DNA from: Escherichia coli
GTDB lineage: Bacteria; Pseudomonadota; Gammaproteobacteria; Enterobacterales; Enterobacteriaceae
Length of the DNA: 64,000 nucleotides
Assembly (NCBI RefSeq): GCF_024298765.1
Contig: NZ_CP101210.1
Strand: one strand, 5' to 3'
Positions 4,837-17,935 of the stretch are shown here, piece by piece. The first letter of the stretch is position 1. Every line of letters begins with the position of its first letter. The position numbers and the translations under genes were made by a program. Below the pieces are notes generated by a model. That model ran no database searches. It saw only the letters and a list, made by a program, of their open reading frames with translations, and had not been told where the DNA came from.

Positions 4837-6548
4837 TGAGCGAAAAACATCCAGGGCCTTTAGTGGTCGAAGGAAAACTGACAGACGCCGAGCGCATGAA
4901 GCTTGAAAGCAACTACCTGCGCGGCACCATTGCGGAAGATTTAAACGACGGTCTGACCGGCGGCTTTAAGGGCGACAACTTCCTGCTGATCCGCTTCCAC
5001 GGCATGTATCAGCAGGATGACCGCGACATCCGCGCCGAACGTGCTGAACAGAAGCTGGAGCCGCGCCACGCGATGCTGTTGCGCTGCCGTCTGCCGGGTG
5101 GCGTGATCACCACCAAACAGTGGCAGGCGATAGACAAATTTGCCGGTGAAAACACCATCTATGGCAGCATTCGCCTGACCAACCGCCAGACGTTTCAGTT
5201 CCACGGCATTCTGAAAAAGAACGTCAAACCGGTGCACCAGATGCTGCACTCGGTCGGCCTTGATGCGCTGGCGACTGCTAACGACATGAACCGTAACGTA
5301 CTCTGCACCTCGAACCCTTACGAGTCGCAACTGCACGCGGAAGCATATGAATGGGCGAAGAAAATCTCTGAACATCTGCTGCCTCGTACCCGCGCGTATG
5401 CGGAGATCTGGCTCGATCAGGAAAAAGTCGCCACTACTGATGAAGAGCCGATCCTTGGTCAGACCTACCTGCCGCGTAAGTTCAAAACCACGGTAGTGAT
5501 CCCGCCGCAGAACGATATCGATCTGCACGCCAACGACATGAACTTCGTGGCAATCGCCGAAAACGGCAAGCTGGTGGGCTTTAACCTGCTGGTGGGCGGT
5601 GGGCTTTCCATCGAACATGGCAACAAGAAAACCTACGCCCGCACGGCGAGTGAGTTTGGCTATCTGCCGCTGGAGCATACGTTGGCAGTGGCGGAAGCCG
5701 TCGTGACAACTCAGCGTGACTGGGGTAACCGAACCGATCGTAAAAATGCCAAAACCAAATACACGCTGGAGCGCGTAGGGGTTGAGACGTTTAAAGCGGA
5801 AGTTGAACGTCGCGCGGGGATCAAATTCGAGCCGATTCGCCCGTATGAGTTTACCGGACGCGGCGATCGTATTGGCTGGGTTAAGGGCATTGATGATAAC
5901 TGGCACCTGACGCTGTTTATCGAAAATGGTCGCATTCTTGATTATCCGGGACGTCCGCTGAAAACCGGCTTGCTGGAGATCGCGAAGATCCACAAAGGTG
6001 ATTTCCGCATTACGGCGAACCAGAATCTGATCATCGCCGGCGTGCCGGAAAGCGAGAAAGCGAAGATCGAGAAGGTCGCCAAAGAAAGCGGGTTAATGAA
6101 TGCCGTCACGCCGCAGCGTGAAAACTCAATGGCCTGCGTGTCATTCCCGACTTGCCCGCTGGCGATGGCGGAAGCGGAGCGTTTCCTACCGTCTTTTATC
6201 GACAACATCGATAATTTAATGGCGAAACATGGTGTCAGCGATGAGCATATCGTGATGCGTGTAACAGGCTGCCCGAACGGTTGTGGTCGCGCGATGCTGG
6301 CGGAAGTGGGTCTGGTGGGGAAAGCGCCGGGTCGCTACAACCTGCATCTTGGCGGCAACCGCATTGGGACACGTATCCCACGGATGTATAAAGAAAACAT
6401 CACCGAGCCGGAAATCCTGGCGTCGCTTGATGAACTGATAGGGCGCTGGGCGAAAGAGCGCGAAGCGGGTGAAGGCTTCGGCGACTTTACGGTGCGTGCG
6501 GGCATCATTCGCCCGGTGCTCGATCCGGCGCGCGATTTGTGGGATTAA
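4836..6548 (+). CDS. cysI: sulfite reductase hemoprotein beta subunit
   Basis: 570-aa ORF; recognised CysI sequence with siroheme/4Fe-4S cysteine motifs ([19 protein letters not shown]). Confidence 0.95.
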
Positions 6549-6564
6549 CCATTAGCCCGGTCTT

Positions 6565-6600
6565 GTAGGCCTGATAAGACGCGTGAGCGTCGCATCAGGC
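6565..6600. repeat. REP palindromic element
   Basis: Palindrome GCCTGATAAGACGCGTGAGCGTCGCATCAGGC in the cysI-cysH intergenic region. Confidence 0.6.
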
Positions 6601-6621
6601 AAGGCAAACAGTGAGGAATCT

Positions 6622-7356
6622 ATGTCCAAACTCGATCTAAACGCCCTGAACGAACTGCCGAAGGTAGATCGCATTCTGGCGCTGGCGGAAACTAACGCCG
6701 AACTGGAAAAACTGGACGCTGAAGGCCGCGTTGCCTGGGCGCTGGATAATCTGCCCGGTGAATATGTACTTTCTTCCAGCTTTGGCATTCAGGCGGCGGT
6801 GAGCCTGCATCTGGTGAATCAGATTCGCCCGGATATTCCGGTGATCCTCACCGATACCGGCTATCTGTTCCCAGAAACCTACCGCTTTATTGACGAGTTA
6901 ACGGACAAACTCAAGCTCAACCTGAAAGTGTACCGCGCTACCGAAAGCGCCGCCTGGCAGGAAGCGCGCTACGGTAAACTGTGGGAGCAGGGTGTTGAGG
7001 GGATTGAGAAGTACAACGAGATCAACAAAGTCGAACCGATGAACCGGGCGCTGAAAGAACTGAATGCGCAAACCTGGTTTGCTGGCCTGCGCCGTGAACA
7101 ATCCGGCAGCCGCGCCAATTTACCGGTGCTGGCAATTCAGCGTGGCGTATTTAAAGTGCTGCCGATTATCGACTGGGATAACCGAACTATTTATCAGTAC
7201 CTGCAAAAACATGGCCTGAAATATCACCCATTATGGGACGAAGGATATTTATCGGTCGGTGATACCCATACAACCCGTAAATGGGAACCCGGCATGGCGG
7301 AAGAAGAAACGCGTTTCTTTGGCTTAAAAAGAGAATGTGGGTTACACGAAGGGTAA
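6622..7356 (+). CDS. cysH: phosphoadenosine phosphosulfate (PAPS) reductase
   Basis: Track ORF 6583..7356; 244-aa protein from [17 protein letters not shown] recognised as CysH; ATG at 6622 preceded by GAGGAA. Confidence 0.9.
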
Positions 7357-7373
7357 ATATTGCCGGATAAATT

Positions 7374-7410
7374 AAACGCCCCTGTCAGAAATGATGGGGC
7401 GTTTTTATTT
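7374..7410 (+). terminator. Rho-independent terminator after cysH
   Basis: Hairpin AAACGCCCC / GGGGCGTTT followed by a T-run, read directly from the sequence. Confidence 0.6.
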
Positions 7411-7524
7411 TGCGAGCAGCATTCCGGCATTTAAAGGTGAACATCGCAGGGAGAATTAACAGGTATAGAATGGAGTTGGGTGCTTGAGGCTGTCTGGCGT
7501 TAAGCATTCGCGAGGTTCCAGATG

Positions 7525-7582
7525 GACAAAAGCCCCAGGCGATATTTCTATCAACCTGAGGCCAGCGTTCGAACCTAAGCAA
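7525..7582 (-). ncRNA. Sok-like antisense RNA of a hok/sok-type locus (predicted)
   Basis: On the minus strand: candidate -35 TTGCCT (plus 7611-7616) and -10 TAACAT (plus 7588-7593) with 17-bp spacing, then a ~57-nt transcript ending in hairpin GCCUCAGG...CCUGGGGC plus CUUUUGU. Size matches the Sok antisense RNA family; boundaries inferred. Confidence 0.4.
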
Positions 7583-7619
7583 TTCGAATGTTAGTCTCTT
7601 CTTTGCAGGGAGGCAAGAC

Positions 7620-7772
7620 ATGCTGACAAAATATGCCCTTGTGGCAATCATCGTACTGTGTTGTACAGTACTGGGATTCACGCTGATGGTAGGCGACTCG
7701 TTGTGTGAGTTGAGTATCAGAGAACGTGGTATGGAGTTTAAGGCAGTTCTCGCTTACGAATCGAAGAAGTAG
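7620..7772 (+). CDS. Hok/Gef family small membrane toxin (type I toxin)
   Basis: 50-aa ORF below the track length cutoff, read by hand: [50 protein letters not shown]. Hydrophobic N-terminal helix plus the conserved DSLCEL...AYES pattern of Hok family toxins; RBS GGGAGG upstream. Confidence 0.7.
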
Positions 7773-7778
7773 CCACCA

Positions 7779-7798
7779 CGCGGGGGTAAAACCCCGCG
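7779..7798 (+). other. Stable stem-loop at the 3' end of the hok-like mRNA (possible fold-back element)
   Basis: CGCGGGG-TAAAA-CCCCGCG perfect hairpin a few nt after the hok stop codon. Confidence 0.4.
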
Positions 7799-8009
7799 TA
7801 CTGAATTGTGATGGTTTGGTCTCCTGCACCCTTTTTTAATTTATATTGTTTATGTGAATATTATGCCTATGTTTATTATTTATATATATTATGGATGAAA
7901 ATCATTTAATTATTCACAATGTAAATATTTTATTGAAAGATATATGTCACAGATAATTTTTAATATATGCGTGAATATCCTTTAAGTTTTACTGAAGGAT
8001 AAAAATATT

Positions 8010-10667
8010 GTGACTTTCTTTTATTTCTGGGGAAAAACCCGACGCGGCGAGAAAGACGGGGGCGAAGACTATCACCTTCTTTGCTGGCATTCGCTGGATG
8101 TAGCCGCGATGGGCTATTTAATGGTTAAAAGCAATTGCTTCGGACTGGCTGGCTATTTTCGTCAATTAGGTTTCGCTGACACGGAGCTGGCAGCACAATT
8201 TTTCGCCTGGCTGCTGTGCTGGCACGATATTGGAAAATTTGCCCGCTCTTTTCAGCAACTTTACCTGCACCCACAACTCAAGGTTCCGGAAGGCGCAAGA
8301 AAGAATTACGAAAAGATCTCTCATTCAACGCTGGGCTACTGGTTGTGGAACCATTATTTAAGTGAATGTCAGGAGTTGCTTCCTTCATCTTCACTCTCTC
8401 CGCGCAAACTTAAACGGGTGATGGAGATGTGGATGCCCATGACTACCGGGCATCATGGTCGACCCCCTGAGCGTATGGATGAACTGGATAATTTTCTGCC
8501 TGAAGACAAAGGTGCCGCACGAGATTTTCTCCTTGCAATCAAGGTACTGTTTCCGCTCATAGAGATCCCCACATTCTGGGATGATGACGAGGGCGTTGAA
8601 CTTATAAAACAACTTTCCTGGTATATCTCTGCAACCGTCGTACTTGCAGACTGGACGGGATCGTCAACGCGATATTTTCCACGCGTTGCACAGGCAATGG
8701 ATATTGAAGATTACTGGCAGAAAACTTTAGTTCAGGCTCAAAACGCCTTAACCGTCTTTCCTCCAAAAGCAGAAAGCGCGCCTTTCACCGGAATTAATAC
8801 GCTGTTTCCTTTTATTGAGAATCCGACACCGCTACAGCAAAAGGTGCTGGATCTGGATATCAGCCAGCCGGGACCACAGTTATTTATTCTGGAGGATGTA
8901 ACCGGCGCAGGTAAAACAGAAGCGGCGCTTATCCTGGCGCACAGGTTGATGGCTGCGGGGAAAGCGCAGGGTTTGTTTTTTGGCCTGCCAACAATGGCAA
9001 CGGCCAATGCCATGTACGATCGACTGGTCAAAACCTGGCTTGCTTTCTATTCGCCAGAGTCCCGCCCCAGCCTGGTGCTGGCACACAGTGCCCGAACATT
9101 AATGGACCGCTTTAATGAATCACTCTGGTCCGGTGATTTAGTCGGGTCAGAAGAACCGGATGAACAAACGTTCAGTCAGGGATGTGCGGCCTGGTTTGCC
9201 GACAGTAACAAGAAGGCGCTACTGGCTGAAATTGGCGTCGGCACGCTGGATCAGGCGATGATGGCTGTGATGCCGTTCAAACATAATAATCTGCGGCTTC
9301 TGGGACTGAGTAACAAAATCCTGCTGGCTGATGAGATCCATGCCTGTGACGCTTACATGTCATGCATTCTTGAAGGGCTGATCGAGCGGCAGGCGCGTGG
9401 CGGAAACAGCGTCATTTTGCTTTCTGCCACGTTATCTCAACAGCAGCGCGACAAACTCGTCGCCGCCTTTGCGCGTGGTATAGAGGGCCAGCAAGAAGCT
9501 CCGTTGCTGGAAAAGGATGATTACCCCTGGCTGACGCACGTTACGAAATCCGATGTGCATTCACACCGGGTAGCGACGCGCAAAGACGTTGAGCGCAGCG
9601 TGAGTGTGGGTTGGCTTCATAGCGAACAAGAGTGTATTGCGCGTATCGAATCGGCGGTAAGTCAGGGGAAATGTATCGCCTGGATCCGAAATTCTGTCGA
9701 TGACGCCATCCAGGTTCATCGTCAGTTACTTGCCCGCGGCGTCATTCCTGCTTCCAGCCTTTCACTTTTTCATAGCCGCTTTGCTTTTAGCGATCGCCAG
9801 CGAATTGAAACGGAGACGCTGGCACGCTTTGGTAAAGAAGACTGTTCACAGCGTGCCGGAAAAGTCCTCATTTGTACTCAAGTCCTGGAGCAGAGCGTTG
9901 ACTGCGACCTGGACGAAATGATTTCCGACCTTGCCCCTGTTGATTTACTGATCCAGCGGGCGGGGCGATTACAGCGGCATATCCGCGATATTAATGGTCT
10001 GTTAAAGCGTGACGGAAAAGACGAGCGTTCCCCTCCTGAATTTCTGATTCTGGCTCCCGTCTGGGACGACTCTCCGGGTGACGAATGGTTTGGCAGCGCC
10101 ATGCGTAACAGTGCATATGTCTACCCCGATCATGGGCGAATCTGGCTGACGCAGCGTGTGCTGCGTGAGCAAGGCGCTATTCAGATGCCACACGCAGCCC
10201 GGCTTCTTATTGAATCAGTCTACGGTGAAGACGTGGCAATGCCGGAAGGATTTGCCCGCAGTGAGCAGGAGCAAGTGGGCAAATATTACTGCGATCGCGC
10301 AATGGCTAAAAAGTTTGTCCTGAACTTCAAGCCTGGCTATGCCGCCAATATCAACGATTACCTTCCGGAAAAGCTGTCGACACGTCTGGCTGAGGAATCT
10401 GTTTCCCTGTGGCTGGCTACCTGTATTGACGGTGTGGTGAAGCCTTATGCCACCGGTGCTCACGCATGGGAAATGAGCGTTGTCAGAGTGCGTCGAAGCT
10501 GGTGGAAAAAACATCGGGATGAGTTTTCTTTACTGGAAGGGGATGCGTTCAGGCAGTGGTGCATTGAACAGCGGCAAGATCCGGAGATGGCAAACGTGAT
10601 TTTAGTCACCGATGACGAAAGTTGCGGGTATTCGGCTATGGAAGGATTGACTGGCAAGGTTGGTTGA
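8010..10667 (+). CDS. cas3: CRISPR-associated helicase/nuclease Cas3 (type I-E)
   Basis: 885-aa ORF starting at GTG 8010 (AAGGA 10 nt upstream); HD-nuclease-like N-terminus (H..LDVAA, HDIGK) and DEAD/DEAH helicase motifs (GAGKTEAA, DEIH); first gene of the cas operon. Confidence 0.9.
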   Translation: MTFFYFWGKTRRGEKDGGEDYHLLCWHSLDVAAMGYLMVKSNCFGLAGYFRQLGFADTELAAQFFAWLLCWHDIGKFARSFQQLYLHPQLKVPEGARKNYEKISHSTLGYWLWNHYLSECQELLPSSSLSPRKLKRVMEMWMPMTTGHHGRPPERMDELDNFLPEDKGAARDFLLAIKVLFPLIEIPTFWDDDEGVELIKQLSWYISATVVLADWTGSSTRYFPRVAQAMDIEDYWQKTLVQAQNALTVFPPKAESAPFTGINTLFPFIENPTPLQQKVLDLDISQPGPQLFILEDVTGAGKTEAALILAHRLMAAGKAQGLFFGLPTMATANAMYDRLVKTWLAFYSPESRPSLVLAHSARTLMDRFNESLWSGDLVGSEEPDEQTFSQGCAAWFADSNKKALLAEIGVGTLDQAMMAVMPFKHNNLRLLGLSNKILLADEIHACDAYMSCILEGLIERQARGGNSVILLSATLSQQQRDKLVAAFARGIEGQQEAPLLEKDDYPWLTHVTKSDVHSHRVATRKDVERSVSVGWLHSEQECIARIESAVSQGKCIAWIRNSVDDAIQVHRQLLARGVIPASSLSLFHSRFAFSDRQRIETETLARFGKEDCSQRAGKVLICTQVLEQSVDCDLDEMISDLAPVDLLIQRAGRLQRHIRDINGLLKRDGKDERSPPEFLILAPVWDDSPGDEWFGSAMRNSAYVYPDHGRIWLTQRVLREQGAIQMPHAARLLIESVYGEDVAMPEGFARSEQEQVGKYYCDRAMAKKFVLNFKPGYAANINDYLPEKLSTRLAEESVSLWLATCIDGVVKPYATGAHAWEMSVVRVRRSWWKKHRDEFSLLEGDAFRQWCIEQRQDPEMANVILVTDDESCGYSAMEGLTGKVG

Positions 10668-10764
10668 GATGCCTGCGACAGGGCTCTCTGAATAGTTGAT
10701 ACACAGAAAAAGATGGAAGGATGGACAACCGGCCAGGGATGGTCTTTTTTACGAGAGGATGCGT

Positions 10765-12327
10765 ATGAACTCGTTTTCACTTCTGACAACCCCGTGGTTG
10801 CCCGTTCGTTTTAAAGACGGAACAACAGGCAAACTGGCGCCAGTCCATCTGGCGGATGAAAATGTTGTCGATATAGCTGCGCCGCGGGCAGATCTCCAGG
10901 GGGCGGCATGGCAGTTTTTGCTGGGGCTACTACAAACCAGCTTCGCGCCAAAAGATCATCGTCGTTGGGATGATATCTGGGAAGACGGACTGGAAGCTGA
11001 AAAGCTACGGGAGGCATTGCTGCCATTAGAGCACGCTTTCCAGTTTGGGCCAGATTCCCCTTCATTTATGCAGGATTTTGAGGCGCTCACGGGAGATAAA
11101 GTTCCGGTCGCTTCGCTACTGCCTGAGATTCCCGGCGTTCAAACAACAAAGTTTAATAAAGACCACTTTATCAAGCGTGGTGTAACGGAACACCTGTGCC
11201 CACAGTGTTCTGCACTAGCCTTGTTCTCTCTACAGTTAAATGCGCCGTCAGGCGGCAAAGGCTATCGCACCGGCTTACGCGGCGGTGGGCCGATGACTAC
11301 TCTGATTGAATTACAGGAATATCAGGGCAATCAACAAACTCCCTTGTGGCGCAAAATGTGGCTCAACGTGATGCCGCAGGATGAAGCCGACTTACCGCTA
11401 CCCAAAAAATTTGACGGTCTGGTTTTCCCCTGGCTTGGCCCGACGCGCACCAGCGAACTGGCCGGTGCGGTGGTAACCGATGATCAGGTTAATAAACTCC
11501 AGGCGTACTGGGGAATGCCGCGGCGTATTCGTATTGATTTTAATACCACGACAGTCGGCAACTGCGATATTTGCGGCGAGCAGAACGACGCGCTCCTGAG
11601 CCTGATGACGACCAAAAATTACGGTGCGAATTATGCCATGTGGCAGCATCCTTTAACGCCTTACCGTATACCACTTAAAGAGGGTGGCGAGTTTTACTCG
11701 GTCAAACCACAACCGGGCGGTTTAATCTGGCGCGACTGGTTAGGCCTTATCGAAACGGGTAAGTCAGAAAACAATACGGAACTTCCTGCACTGGTGGTGA
11801 AACTCTTTAATGCCAGCAGTCTGAAACAGGCAAAAGTGGGCCTATGGGGATTTGGTTATGATTTTGACAACATGAAAGCGCGCTGTTGGTACGAACACCA
11901 TTTCCCGCTACTGCTCAATAAAAAAGAAGGCCAGATACCGAAGCTGCGGCTGGCTGCGCAAACGGCTTCACGGATTCTGAGTCTGTTACGGAGTGCATTG
12001 AAAGAAGCATGGTTCTCCGATCCAAAAGGTGTAAGGGGTGATTTCAGTTTTGTGGATATCGACTTCTGGAACAAAACTCAGCATCGCTTCCTGAGGTTAG
12101 TGCGCCAAATTGAAGAAGGTCAGGATGCGGATGAATTACTCGGCAAATGGCAAAAGGAAATTTGGTTATTCGCGCGTCAGGATTTTGACGAGCGTGTATT
12201 CACTAATCCTTATGAGCCCGTTGATTTGAAACGCGTCATGACCGCGCGCAAGAAATATTTTACAACATCGGCGGAGAAGCAAAGTGCTAAAGCCGCCAGG
12301 GAGAAAAAGCAGGAGGCTGCTGAATGA
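10765..12327 (+). CDS. casA: Cascade large subunit Cse1/CasA (Cas8e)
   Basis: Track ORF 10696..12327; likely start ATG 10765 (MNSFSLLTTPWLPV) preceded by GAGAGG; position and size match the Cascade large subunit. Confidence 0.8.
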   Translation: MNSFSLLTTPWLPVRFKDGTTGKLAPVHLADENVVDIAAPRADLQGAAWQFLLGLLQTSFAPKDHRRWDDIWEDGLEAEKLREALLPLEHAFQFGPDSPSFMQDFEALTGDKVPVASLLPEIPGVQTTKFNKDHFIKRGVTEHLCPQCSALALFSLQLNAPSGGKGYRTGLRGGGPMTTLIELQEYQGNQQTPLWRKMWLNVMPQDEADLPLPKKFDGLVFPWLGPTRTSELAGAVVTDDQVNKLQAYWGMPRRIRIDFNTTTVGNCDICGEQNDALLSLMTTKNYGANYAMWQHPLTPYRIPLKEGGEFYSVKPQPGGLIWRDWLGLIETGKSENNTELPALVVKLFNASSLKQAKVGLWGFGYDFDNMKARCWYEHHFPLLLNKKEGQIPKLRLAAQTASRILSLLRSALKEAWFSDPKGVRGDFSFVDIDFWNKTQHRFLRLVRQIEEGQDADELLGKWQKEIWLFARQDFDERVFTNPYEPVDLKRVMTARKKYFTTSAEKQSAKAAREKKQEAAE

Positions 12328-12860
12328 GTATTGTAAAAGAGGAGCACAAAGCCACGCTGCGTAAATGGCACGAAGAGTTGCAGGAAAAACGCGGCAATCG
12401 TGCCAGTCTGCGGCGTAGCACAACGGTTAATGATGTTTGTCTGTCAGAAGGGTTTCGTTCTCTGCTGATGCAGACCCACACGTTGTGGAAAATTGAATCA
12501 CAGGAGTGGCGTTTTACCGCACTGGCGCTGGTTGCCGCCGTTGCCGCCAATGTAAAAGCCATTGATGAACGGCAGCCTTTTGCCGCGCAGTTGGCGGCGG
12601 TAATGTCTGAGGGGCGTTTTACTCGCCTGTCGGCAGTCAAAACGCCGGATGAATTACTGCGCCAGTTACGTCGCGCGGTCAAATTATTAAATGGTTCCGT
12701 CAATCTTATCTCTTTGGCAGACGATATTTTCCGCTGGTGCCAGGAGAGCGACGATCTGCTCAATCATCACCGCCGCCAGCAGCGGCCAACAGAATTTATC
12801 CGTATCCGCTGGGCGCTGGAATATTACCAGGCTGGCGACGCCGATAACGAACAAAATTAA
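12324..12860 (+). CDS. casB: Cascade small subunit Cse2/CasB (Cas11)
   Basis: 178-aa ORF; start overlaps the cse1 stop (ATGA); AGGAGG RBS; position in operon. Confidence 0.8.
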   Translation: MSIVKEEHKATLRKWHEELQEKRGNRASLRRSTTVNDVCLSEGFRSLLMQTHTLWKIESQEWRFTALALVAAVAANVKAIDERQPFAAQLAAVMSEGRFTRLSAVKTPDELLRQLRRAVKLLNGSVNLISLADDIFRWCQESDDLLNHHRRQQRPTEFIRIRWALEYYQAGDADNEQN

Positions 12861-12874
12861 TAAAGGACTATCTC

Positions 12875-13930
12875 ATGACGACATTTATTCAGCTTCATTT
12901 GTTAACCGCTTACCCTGCTGCCAACCTTAACCGTGATGACACCGGTGCGCCAAAAACTGTGGTACTGGGTGGAGCAACGCGTCTGCGCGTTTCCTCACAA
13001 AGTCTGAAACGTGCGTGGCGCACTTCTGCACTTTTTGAACAGGCACTGGCGGGCCATATTGGTATTCGCAGTGGGCGTATTGCGCGTGAGGCGGCAACTA
13101 TCCTGATTGAGAAAGGCATCGAAGAGAAAAAAGCCATCGAATGGGCGGCAAAAATTGCGGATTATCTTGGGAAAGCTAAAAACGACAAAAAACCAAAAGA
13201 TCCGCTCACTAACGCCGAAACTGAACAGCTAGTCCATATCAGCCCGGCAGAATTTGACGCCGTAAAAGCGCTGGCCCATCAACTGGCCGAAGAAAAGCGC
13301 GCGCCAAAAGAGGAAGATCTCGCTTTGTTACGTAAAGATCGCATGGCGGTAGATATCGCTATGTTTGGTCGTATGCTGGCGAATAAACCCGAATTTAATG
13401 TTGAAGCCGCCTGCCAGGTCGCGCATGCATTTGGTGTCAGTGAAACGATTGTCGAAGATGATTTTTTCACCGCCGTTGATGATTTGCGCCAGGCTTCTGA
13501 AGATGCCGGTGCCGGGCATCTTGGTGAAACCGGATTCGGTTCTGCGCTGTTCTACACCTATATCTGCATCGATAAAGATCTGCTGGTCGAAAACCTCGGC
13601 GGTGACGAAGCGTTAGCTAATCAGACCTTGCGCGCCTTTACGGAAGCCGCACTTAAAGTCTCCCCAACCGGCAAACAGAACAGCTTTGCCAGCCGTGCCT
13701 ACGCCTCCTGGGCGCTGGCAGAAAAAGGCACTGAACAACCACGCTCTCTGGCGGCGGCTTTCTATGAACCCATTAATGGCACCCTCCAGTTAGATGTGGC
13801 GGTGCAGCGTATTACAACGCTTCGCGAAAATATGAATACGGTCTATGAACAGAAGACCGAATGTGCAAGCTTTGACGTGATGAACAAACAGGGAAGCATG
13901 AAGGACGTGCTGGACTTTATCTGCGCGTAA
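12875..13930 (+). CDS. casC: Cascade backbone subunit Cas7e/CasC
   Basis: 351-aa ORF; N-terminus MTTFIQLHLLTAYPAANLNRDDTGAPKT recognised as the CasC family. Confidence 0.9.
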   Translation: MTTFIQLHLLTAYPAANLNRDDTGAPKTVVLGGATRLRVSSQSLKRAWRTSALFEQALAGHIGIRSGRIAREAATILIEKGIEEKKAIEWAAKIADYLGKAKNDKKPKDPLTNAETEQLVHISPAEFDAVKALAHQLAEEKRAPKEEDLALLRKDRMAVDIAMFGRMLANKPEFNVEAACQVAHAFGVSETIVEDDFFTAVDDLRQASEDAGAGHLGETGFGSALFYTYICIDKDLLVENLGGDEALANQTLRAFTEAALKVSPTGKQNSFASRAYASWALAEKGTEQPRSLAAAFYEPINGTLQLDVAVQRITTLRENMNTVYEQKTECASFDVMNKQGSMKDVLDFICA

Positions 13931-13940
13931 GGGGCGGCTA

Positions 13941-14687
13941 ATGAGCCAATATTTGATTTTTCAGCTTCATGGGCCAATGGCATCCTGGGGCGTCGATGCC
14001 CCTGGCGAAGTGCGTCATACCCATGAACTGCCTTCGCGCTCAGCATTGCTGGGGCTGCTGGCTGCCGGGGTAGGGATTCGGCGTGATGATACCGAACGAT
14101 TAAACGCGTTTAACCGCCACTATTCACTGGTGGTTTGCGCCAGCCGTAACCCGCGCTGGGCACGGGATTATCACACGGTCCAGATGCCAAAAGAGGTGCG
14201 TAAAGCGCGTTATTTCAGCCGTCGCGAAGAGTTGAGCGCCCCTGATCTTCTGAGCGCGATTATCTCCCGGCGCGACTACTACACCGATGCCTGGTGGATG
14301 GTGGCGGTGGCAACAACCCCCGATGCGCCTTACAGCCTTGAACAGTTGCAGGACGGTTTACGTCATCCGGTTTTTCCGCTTTATCTGGGGCGAAAAAGTC
14401 ATCCGCTGGCGTTACCACTTGCGCCGTTACTGCTCGAAGGCAACGCGTCTGATGTCTTACGTAACGCATACCAACAGTATCAGGATAGTTTCCGCGAACT
14501 GAAAGTCTCACTCCCGAAACTTCAGGATGAATGCTGGTGGGAAGGGGAACACGACGGCCTGGTCGCGAGCAAAATATTACGTCGCCGGGATGTTCCTTTA
14601 AATCGTCAGCAGTGGCTGTTTGGGGAACGCACCATCAATCAGGGGCCGTGGCTCAGCAAGGAGGAACCATGTACCTCTCAAGAATAA
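13941..14687 (+). CDS. casD: Cascade subunit Cas5e/CasD
   Basis: 248-aa ORF; N-terminus MSQYLIFQLHGPMASWG recognised as the Cas5e family. Confidence 0.85.
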   Translation: MSQYLIFQLHGPMASWGVDAPGEVRHTHELPSRSALLGLLAAGVGIRRDDTERLNAFNRHYSLVVCASRNPRWARDYHTVQMPKEVRKARYFSRREELSAPDLLSAIISRRDYYTDAWWMVAVATTPDAPYSLEQLQDGLRHPVFPLYLGRKSHPLALPLAPLLLEGNASDVLRNAYQQYQDSFRELKVSLPKLQDECWWEGEHDGLVASKILRRRDVPLNRQQWLFGERTINQGPWLSKEEPCTSQE

Positions 14688-15315
14688 CCTTACATACCGG
14701 CCAGCTTTCCCCAGCGCAGTTGCTGCATCTGGTGGATCGCGGTGAATATGTAATGCATCAGTGGCTGTGGGATCTTTTTCCTGGCGGCAAAGAAAGGCAA
14801 TTTCTTTATCGTCGGGAAGAACTCCAGGGGGCGTTTCGCTTTTTTGTCCTGTCGCAGGAACGCCCGGCGGAAAGTGATATTTTCACCATCGAATGCCGAC
14901 CATTTGCGCCAGAGTTGCGTACCGGACAATCCCTTTGTTTCAACCTGCGGGCGAATCCAACAATTTGTAAAGCGGGCAAACGCCACGACTTGCTGATGGA
15001 GGCGAAACGGCAGGTGAGGGGGCAGGTGGAAGGAAGTGATGTCTGGTTGCATCAACAACAGGCTGCGCTGGACTGGCTGGCAGCGCAGGGGGAGAGAAGC
15101 GGTTTTACACTGCTGGATACTTCGGTTGATGCCTACCGACAACAGCAACTGCGGCGGGAAAACTCCCGGCAACTGATCCAGTTCAGTAGCGTGGATTATA
15201 CGGGGATGCTTACGGTCACCGATCCTGGGTTATTTCTGCAACGTCTCAGTCAGGGGTATGGCAAAAGCCGGGCGTTCGGTTGTGGTCTGATGCTGATCAA
15301 ACCCGGAGCAGAGGC

Positions 15316-15319
<4 letters not shown>
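14669..15319 (+). CDS. casE: CRISPR RNA endoribonuclease Cas6e/CasE
   Basis: Track ORF 14531..15319; likely start ATG 14669 (MYLSRITL) with AAGGAGG RBS; glycine-rich C-terminal GCGLM loop typical of Cas6e. Confidence 0.85.
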
Positions 15320-16529
<1,210 letters not shown>

Positions 16530-16625
16530 GTTATCCGTTCTTTAAAAATAAGGAAATGTTTTAATTTAGTTGGTAGATTGTTGATGCGGAATAAATTTGT
16601 TTAAAAACAGTTATGTATGCTTAGT
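16530..16625 (+). promoter_or_regulatory. CRISPR leader (AT-rich, array promoter and integration site)
   Basis: About 96-bp AT-rich segment between the cas2 stop and the first repeat. Confidence 0.6.
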
Positions 16626-17935
16626 GTGTTCCCCGCGCCAGCGGGGATAAACCGCATTGAAAACATTGCCTTTATTTTATTTTTTGGTGTTCCCCGCGCC
16701 AGCGGGGATAAACCGGTGCCGCCGCTGGGCACTTCCTTCCCGTGAGTGTGTTCCCCGCGCCAGCGGGGATAAACCGCCCTGATAGCGTCCAGTTGAATGC
16801 GCGCCCGCGTGTTCCCCGCGCCAGCGGGGATAAACCGGCAGGCACGGGCAATATCAGACTCGGTCAAAGGTGTTCCCCGCGCCAGCGGGGATAAACCGCT
16901 CGGTTGTTTTCATATTACCGGCCTGCCACTGTGTTCCCCGCGCCAGCGGGGATAAACCGACAATATCCCGGACCGGGCGCTGATTTAGTCAGTGTTCCCC
17001 GCGCCAGCGGGGATAAACCGCGGACGGTGGGAATATAGAAAATCCGTCCACCGTGTTCCCCGCGCCAGCGGGGATAAACCGTTATACTCTTTTCATCGAC
17101 TAAGGAGGGGAGGGTGTTCCCCGCGCCAGCGGGGATAAACCGCAATAACGCAGCATCCAGGAAGCTGTTTCCGCGTGTTCCCCGCGCCAGCGGGGATAAA
17201 CCGCGATCGGTGAAGAGGTCCGCGAAATACTCACTGTGTTCCCCGCGCCAGCGGGGATAAACCGGCGATAGTTGATTCAGCCGCGCCAGCGAATGTGTGT
17301 TCCCCGCGCCAGCGGGGATAAACCGGGGCCGCCGCGAATTTACACACGATTCAATACGTGTTCCCCGCGCCAGCGGGGATAAACCGAACTGGTGCGCGAC
17401 GGCTGGCTAACAAAACGAGTGTTCCCCGCGCCAGCGGGGATAAACCGCGTGGCTGCGCTGGCCGTTGCAGCAGTTTGATGTGTTCCCCGCGCCAGCGGGG
17501 ATAAACCGCGTAAACGCCCCGTCGCCATTAATTTCGGGGTGTGTTCCCCGCGCCAGCGGGGATAAACCGTGGGATGAGCAAATAACGTCGTTTCCTAGAA
17601 AGTGTTCCCCGCGCCAGCGGGGATAAACCGCCGCCGTGCCAGTGATCCTCATACGGCCTGTTGTGTTCCCCGCGCCAGCGGGGATAAACCGAAATTAAGA
17701 ACGGCGTAAACGACGGCAGCATGGTGTTCCCCGCGCCAGCGGGGATAAACCGGTGATGATTCAGAGCAGACATTAGCCCGCGCTGTGTTCCCCGCGCCAG
17801 CGGGGATAAACCGGGTAAAAACACGGTCTGAACCGACATTCATGTGTGTTCCCCGCGTCAGCGGGGATAAACCGGACGCACTGGATGCGATGATGGATAT
17901 CACTTAGAATTCCCCGCCCCTGCGGTAGAACTCCC
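16626..17935 (+). CRISPR. Type I-E CRISPR array: 21 repeats of GTGTTCCCCGCGCCAGCGGGGATAAACCG plus a degenerate terminal repeat, 21 spacers of 32 nt
   Basis: Repeats counted by hand at 16626, 16687, 16748 ... 17846 with an exact 61-bp period. Repeat 21 (17846-17874) carries one substitution (GCGTCAGCG); the terminal repeat 17907-17935 (GAATTCCCCGCCCCTGCGGTAGAACTCCC) matches about 18/29. Confidence 0.97.

Follow-up and report, generated by a model that had tools for sequence, protein, structure and literature searches.

An apparently intact type I-E CRISPR-Cas locus of the cas-E1/cas-EO variant in Escherichia coli and the probable start of its cas3 gene

[quoted passage not shown] Our comparative analysis indicates that this locus is very probably a complete, coding-intact CRISPR-Cas system of type I-E in E. 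coli, of the cas-E1/cas-EO (O157:H7-type) variant, at the usual cysH-iap site. The system is already well described: published work covers its standing as a variant, the type of its repeat, the leader, the neighbouring hok/sok and the preference for a protospacer adjacent motif (PAM), in line with the first-pass annotation of the window, which had called it a known and not a novel system type.

Gene content and coding integrity of the locus

The list of open reading frames (ORFs) of the window contains eight co-directional frames on the plus strand between positions 8010 and 16529, each without an internal stop codon. They correspond to cas3, cse1/casA, cse2/casB, cas7e, cas5e, cas6e, cas1e and cas2e and are followed by a leader and a CRISPR array, the order along the E. 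coli chromosome being cysJIH, hok/sok, cas, CRISPR, iap, cysDNC. Eight uninterrupted cas ORFs, a leader and a 22-repeat array had been described in the first-pass annotation, and both the ORF list and a repeat scan returned the same coordinates and counts. Cas1e and Cas2e are present and cas4 is not, no extra ORF being listed inside the cas operon. All eight proteins passed NCBIfam type I-E models above the curated cut-offs, which bears out the earlier description of the system as a complete type I-E.

The Cas3 protein, encoded on the plus strand at 8010-10667 when read from a GTG codon (885 amino acids), combines an N-terminal HD nuclease with a superfamily 2 (SF2) helicase in a single chain. 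It scored above cut-off with both TIGR01596 (cas3_HD, 87.1 bits) and TIGR01587 (cas3_core, 214.3 bits), and a phmmer search matched it to the solved Cas3 structures 4Q2C and 6C66/4QQW, aligned across the motifs. An alignment of the Cas3 HD and helicase motifs and of the Cas1 catalytic residues, which had been proposed as a check on the first-pass annotation, revealed conservation of every residue looked at. In the HD motif of Cas3 these were H27, H72, D73, K76, H149-H150 and D214; helicase motifs I, II, III and VI were also present, with K302 of Walker A, the DEIH box (D441, E442, H444), S472 and T474 of motif III and the QRAGR of motif VI. Cas1 retained E141, H208, D218 and D221, and the catalytic histidine of Cas6e (H30) aligned with H20 of the K-12 protein. 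The catalytic positions in Cas3, Cas1 and Cas6e are those known from K-12 mutant studies, and the alignment itself was computed. With these residues kept and all frames open, the reading of the locus as intact by sequence stands, and in all likelihood cas3 is functional as far as its sequence can tell.

The five genes for the Cascade subunits follow on the same strand. The large subunit cse1/casA (cas8e) occupies 10765-12327 (520 amino acids, no internal stop) and scored 606.8 bits with TIGR02547 (cut-off 70.05); cse2/casB (cas11e) lies at 12324-12860 (178 amino acids; TIGR02548, 105.4 bits, cut-off 28.5), the backbone gene cas7e/casC at 12875-13930 (351 amino acids; TIGR01869, 445 bits), cas5e/casD at 13941-14687 (248 amino acids; TIGR01868, 159.6 bits) and cas6e/casE, coding for the precursor CRISPR RNA endoribonuclease, at 14669-15319 (216 amino acids; TIGR01907, 287.8 bits). 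The adaptation genes complete the plus-strand operon: the integrase gene cas1e at 15316-16239, with a GTG start (307 amino acids; TIGR03638, 380.9 bits), and cas2e at 16236-16529 (97 amino acids; TIGR01873, 133 bits). Junctions are tight throughout most of the operon, with a gap of 97 nt between cas3 and casA, an overlap of 4 nt between casA and casB, gaps of 14 nt (casB/cas7) and 10 nt (cas7/cas5), and overlaps of 19 nt (cas5/cas6e), 4 nt (cas6e/cas1) and 4 nt (cas1/cas2). The longest-ORF starts lie too far upstream for casA, cas6e and cas1; the likely starts at 10765, 14669 and 15316 were chosen from Shine-Dalgarno motifs and from the annotation that the Prokaryotic Genome Annotation Pipeline (PGAP) gives for MSHS 133, a near-identical strain, and a Shine-Dalgarno-like motif precedes each start from casA through cas2e. 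The cas5e gene carries one non-synonymous single-nucleotide polymorphism (SNP) relative to MSHS 133, residue 132 being serine in the window, as it also is in strain 104, and arginine in MSHS 133.

Variant membership and comparison with K-12 and Salmonella

When the 9.9-kb locus was used as a query against 5426 complete E. coli genomes, 4305 of them gave a match, and in 2406 the match extended over at least 80% of the length. Strain MSHS 133 covered 100% of the query and, over 13.9 kb, differed from the window in only two SNPs and in array content. The corresponding variant has been published as cas-E1 or cas-EO, the O157:H7-type with a CRISPR2.1 array (Diez-Villasenor 2013, PMC3737337; Almendros 2014, PMC3903273), and is the same as 'var. 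B-8552' of PMC12736100. E1 is regarded as the primary form carried by the majority of E. coli, and the E2 form of K-12 as a later replacement in a minority of strains (PMC3903273, PMC3737337, PMC12736100). The designation of the locus as an 'alternative' I-E variant in the first-pass annotation is correct in so far as it is not the K-12 variant, and misplaced in so far as this is the majority form of the species, as the 2406 genomes at that coverage attest.

The window shares with E1 the cysH-iap site, the hok/sok neighbour, the order of the genes and a repeat of the A type (GTGTTCCCC... = ...GGGGAACAC), which reads GTG... on this strand and is accompanied by a leader of the L1/A type; an ATG PAM, as reported for the variant, flanks the spacer-16 protospacer, whereas that of spacer 20 has CTG or ATG depending on the phage. 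The cas3 gene of the window shows 94.3% nucleotide identity to an O157:H7 allele. The G+C content of the window's cas genes (51.9% over 8010-16529) is higher than that of the K-12 operon (44.8%) and close to the published E1 mean, the reported mean values being approximately 53.5% for E1 and 45.6% for E2 (PMC3903273). Nothing of substance separates the window from E1: it carries the minority form of a short T run upstream of cas3, considered below, and a spacer set of its own, 21 in number.

Compared with K-12 (cas-E2), the window shares the subtype, the gene order, the architecture of 29-nt repeats and 32-nt spacers, and the catalytic residues. Identity to K-12 amounts to 85% for Cas1 and 86% for Cas2, against 29% for Cas3, 21% for CasA, 31% for Cas7, 35% for Cas5 and 27% for Cas6e, and BLASTP returned no significant similarity between the two CasB proteins. 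The K-12-type models scored below cut-off with the window proteins, PRK09694 (Cas3) reaching 421.9 of the required 569 bits and PRK09693 (CasA) 106 of 576 bits. The first-pass annotation had noticed divergence from K-12 at the N-terminus of Cas3; the divergence is real and is not confined to the N-terminus, since the 29% identity applies to the whole length. It had also reported a repeat difference at position 2, which was found as described, with T in the window and A in the T-type repeat of K-12 (GAGTTCCCC...). The leaders of the two strains have diverged, and the cas3-casA gap of 97 nt corresponds to 414 nt in K-12. The reported acquisition motif likewise differs, being CWT for the E1-type variant and CTT for K-12 (PMC3737337). 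Results obtained with the K-12 model should be transferred to the E1 variant with care because the effectors are only 21-35% identical and CasB lacks detectable similarity.

The hok/sok module between cysH and cas3 (window 7478-7772) is intact, whereas K-12 has only a sokX remnant. It consists of a sok element at 7478-7635, which Rfam (RF01794) matched with 111.7 bits, and of a Hok/Gef ORF, 50 codons long, at 7620-7772, and a Hok/Gef coding sequence is annotated in the identical relative MSHS 133. The module between cysH and cas3 has been described as a companion of E1 that is absent from E2 strains (PMC3903273). At the other end of the locus, spacer 21 of the window (17875-17906) is common to K-12, where it is the last spacer, at two mismatches, and K-12 has a GTG (A) type repeat as its last but one. 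The two observations fit the published idea of an E2 module inserted into a pre-existing E1-type array.

The first-pass annotation had further suggested that the variant is common to some Salmonella. This holds for the repeat, which is identical over its 29 nt, and for the neighbourhood (cysH ... iap-like peptidase, cysDNC), whereas the effectors are only moderately similar: a typical Salmonella Cas3 shows approximately 64% identity to that of the window over the N-terminal 300 amino acids, and in Salmonella sopD adjoins cas3 in place of hok/sok. The effector proteins of S. Senftenberg NCTC10384 are still more distant (35-56% identical to those of the window) and its cas3 is inverted. This locus was rejected as the close relative that the first-pass annotation had led us to expect; it represents a third variant of cas-E, which is more distant and in which cas3 runs opposite to casA, and its Cas3 is 44% identical to that of the window and 33% to that of K-12. 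The record that carries it (NZ_LN868944.1) is listed in PLSDB as 'plasmid 2' of this strain, with a length of 728 kb, and contains the chromosomal core genes cysH, cysDNC, ispDF and rpoS.

As a standard type I-E system of the majority E. coli form, already published, the locus is of little value for discovery.

The CRISPR array, its spacers and the activity of the system

The leader, of type L1/A, aligned block-wise with the K-12 and Salmonella leaders and occupies 96 nt on the plus strand (16530-16625); it is AT-rich (approximately 35% G+C) and identical in the E1 strains MSHS 133 and 104. The array that follows (CRISPR2.1/CRISPR-I; 16626-17935, plus strand) was found by a repeat scan to comprise 22 repeats, each 29 nt long, and 21 spacers, all of 32 nt, with a period of exactly 61 nt. 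The repeat GTGTTCCCCGCGCCAGCGGGGATAAACCG is present in 20 perfect copies, repeat 21 departs from it at one position, and repeat 22 (17907-17935), the degenerate last copy, has 11 mismatches. At up to three mismatches the repeat pattern matched 21 times, against no match in 100 shuffles, and the expected hairpin, a GC stem of 7 bp closed by a loop of 4 nt, is predicted for the repeat (-15.2 kcal/mol, z = -3.2). No further copies of the repeat were found outside the array within the window, and therefore CRISPR2.2/2.3 lie outside it. At the gathering threshold Rfam reported no CRISPR repeat family at the locus, sok being its only hit.

Expression, CRISPR RNA (crRNA) processing, interference and acquisition would be expected to proceed by the established type I-E pathway, from which the following mechanism is derived. 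The array would be transcribed from the leader, and Cas6e would cleave every repeat where its hairpin ends, at the 3' base, releasing 61-nt crRNAs composed of an 8-nt handle (AUAAACCG), a 32-nt spacer and a 21-nt hairpin handle. Cse1, Cse2, Cas7e, Cas5e and Cas6e would assemble on the crRNA to form Cascade, which through Cse1 would recognise an AWG PAM (ATG/AAG; CAT/CTT on the other strand) and form an R-loop. Cas3 would then be recruited, and its HD nuclease and helicase would nick and processively degrade the target, while Cas1-Cas2 would insert new spacers at the leader-proximal repeat.

Only two of the 21 spacers (16 and 20) found a match when 50,697 phage records and a plasmid collection were searched, and no spacer matched elsewhere in the window at up to eight mismatches, which leaves no self-targeting within it. 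For spacer 16 (17570-17601), 31 of 33 positions agreed with IncFII virulence plasmids from Salmonella, next to an ATG PAM. Spacer 20 (17814-17845), the sole spacer with a phage match, agreed at 33 of 33 positions, including the last G of the repeat, with P7, SJ46 and P1-like phages, the protospacer being located inside the lxr/upf94.2 gene; the copy in P1 has an ATG PAM and four mismatches, including one at position 4. For this variant a CAT/CTT acquisition motif has been reported, ATG (CAT on the other strand) being the commonest for arrays with this leader type (PMC3737337). The ATG found at the spacer-16 protospacer and at the P1 copy of the spacer-20 protospacer agrees with that motif, for two spacers only.

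The arrays of close relatives differ from that of the window by internal losses of repeat-spacer units only (16838-16991). MSHS 133 is without spacer 4 of the window and has one spacer that is gone from the window, where it would stand after spacer 6 and before spacer 7; the 75 mismatches to MSHS 133 at 16838-16990, considered as three replaced spacers, were resolved by spacer-by-spacer comparison into a one-unit register shift, and the replacement was rejected. Strain 104 is without spacers 3-6, and only one of spacers 18 and 19 is possible there.

Several observations weigh against the main reading of the locus. Among the arrays of the window, MSHS 133 and 104 no new leader-proximal spacers were found, and nothing in the arrays of these close relatives points to recent acquisition. 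Over the whole cas region one SNP (11432) separates strain 104 from the window and introduces a stop at codon 223 of casA, the window allele being intact; selection for keeping the system is not strong, because a strain only one SNP away carries such a nonsense codon. The flanking triplet at the perfect spacer-20 matches in P7 and SJ46 is the non-canonical CTG; taken with the canonical ATG and the mismatches in P1, this could mean that each of the phage lineages has undergone escape mutation. Finally, a consensus sigma-70 scan found fewer promoter-like sites than in shuffled sequences, and none of use in the sequence upstream of cas3, of casA or of the array. E. coli type I-E arrays are viewed as old and seldom updated, and the internal deletions and the casA stop of strain 104 fit this view.

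H-NS is known to silence the K-12 system, and an intact but cryptic system, transcriptionally silenced in a similar (H-NS type) manner, conferring little current immunity and carrying spacers that are old relics, is quite plausible here, a reading towards which we lean slightly. The region upstream of cas3 (7780-8009, plus strand), presumably containing the promoter or regulatory sequences and the 5' untranslated region (UTR), has only 26.5% G+C over its 230 nt, which is compatible with H-NS-type silencing by analogy with K-12, and the leader is AT-rich as well; the shared spacers and purely internal deletions of close relatives, the trailer-end spacer held in common even with K-12, and the two matches among 21 spacers point in the same direction. 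H-NS control was, however, demonstrated for the E2 variant of K-12, the promoter regions of which are unrelated in sequence, and cas3 is probably used at least sometimes, because it is under purifying selection (see the substitution ratios below). Such a cryptic state is compatible with a complete, coding-intact E1 locus, as it concerns the activity of the system and not its identity.

The start codon of cas3 and the T run upstream of it

Alignment with alleles that are annotated as an 899-codon cas3 revealed TTTT in the window at 7987-7990 where these alleles have TTT. In the three-T (T3) alleles translation from the ATG at window position 7967 reads through into cas3, giving the annotated 899-amino-acid form. 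In the four-T (T4) alleles the same ATG opens an 11-codon mini-ORF (ATG...TAA; 7967-8002, plus strand), which stops at 8002 and so leaves 7 nt to the GTG at 8010. The most likely interpretation is that cas3 is translated from GTG 8010 and that the extra T lies in the 5' UTR of an unbroken gene.

Comparison with orthologous Cas3 proteins argues for this start. Four diverged orthologues (49-65% identical) begin with MSIYHYWGK, MFNYWGK, MNIYNYWGK and MNSLWYWGK, which aligned with MTFFYFWGK of the window, so that their starts fall 3-6 residues ahead of the YWGK motif, the position of GTG 8010. The Salmonella orthologue beside sopD also has a GTG start at the aligned position, preceded by GGAG and with an in-frame stop 45 nt upstream, and a further orthologue has an ATG start that aligns almost there, two codons further in. 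In the window AAGGA stands upstream of GTG 8010, at a distance of 10 nt, whereas ahead of ATG 7967 there are only A and T and no Shine-Dalgarno motif. The T4 alleles occur on three backgrounds (the window, 042 and GMF054) that are 5-6% apart in nucleotides, and all keep the 885-codon frame; their pairwise ratios of nonsynonymous to synonymous substitution (dN/dS) in cas3, 0.126-0.148, are indistinguishable from the 0.128-0.172 of the T3 alleles. The indel is placed in the 5' UTR because of the orthologue starts, the Salmonella GTG, the Shine-Dalgarno motif and the kept frame with its low dN/dS. Hence the GTG 8010 start adopted in the first-pass annotation is favoured, short of proof, by the evidence; that annotation had sidestepped the 1-nt insertion behind the RefSeq pseudogene call.

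An outgroup did not add to this comparison. A scan for the coding pattern FWGKTRRGE with one genome per species yielded only E. coli, a chance match in a metagenome-assembled genome of Balneolales, and a contig labelled Pseudocitrobacter vendiensis (NZ_CALSBS010000035.1), the last of which was rejected as undecisive for the cas3 start, being too close (91.7%) and also T4. The identity of this contig to window 5519-9227 covers cysI, cysH, hok and the 5' end of cas3, and such closeness is unexpected in a different genus and points to transfer, to a wrong label or to contamination. A literature search for reports on the cas3 frameshift or start codon returned nothing relevant.

Other findings weigh against translation from GTG 8010. 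The RefSeq annotation by PGAP describes the same cas3 sequence in MSHS 133 and 104 as a "frameshifted" pseudogene starting from ATG 7967, and the equivalent T4 alleles of 042 and GMF054 likewise. Of the complete E. coli genomes, 131 contain a T4-specific 32-mer and 2618 its T3 counterpart, which makes T3 approximately 20 times commoner. The number of residues before WGK varies among Cas3 proteins and is approximately 20 in T. fusca, similar to the 899-amino-acid form; a genuine 14-amino-acid N-terminal extension of Cas3 is therefore conceivable, and the low dN/dS could merely reflect recent, recurrent slippage of the T run.

These points might be taken to indicate a decaying system, in which the additional T at 7987-7990 truly frameshifts cas3, the real start is ATG 7967 and Cas3 is absent or poorly made, so that crRNA processing and target binding would be possible and DNA destruction would not. 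The pseudogene labels and the rarity of T4 would agree with such decay, as would the additional casA nonsense mutation of the near-identical strain 104; in some of the sampled T4 genomes, moreover, the feature in the cas3 region is named only as Cas3'' HD endonuclease, which may mean further truncation. We nevertheless consider decay unlikely. The 14-codon extension is missing from the orthologues, which start at the GTG position, and it is the GTG and not the ATG that has a Shine-Dalgarno motif. The alignment to the NCBIfam Cas3 profile starts at residue 2 of the GTG-started protein, the first histidine of the HD motif (H27) is encoded downstream of this start, as is every other motif, and the 885-codon frame has been kept, with a dN/dS of approximately 0.14, on three diverged T4 backgrounds.

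It is more doubtful still that the T3/T4 run, 20 nt upstream of GTG 8010, serves as a recurrent slip-strand switch tuning Cas3 dosage, as the presence of T4 on at least three diverged cas3 backgrounds is compatible with recurrence and equally compatible with a neutral indel in the 5' UTR. The level of Cas3 limits type I-E immunity and autoimmunity; with such a switch, T3 might permit an ATG-initiated 899-amino-acid isoform, while in T4, where the 11-codon upstream ORF terminates just before the GTG, Cas3 would need reinitiation or translational coupling. Lineages would in that case toggle the strength of interference with the gene retained.

With cas3 read from GTG 8010, the RefSeq start of E1-type cas3 is probably 14 codons too long. 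If the RefSeq start is indeed wrong, at least 131 complete genomes hold a probably spurious "frameshifted cas3" call, and surveys of E. coli that count intact CRISPR-Cas systems would be biased.

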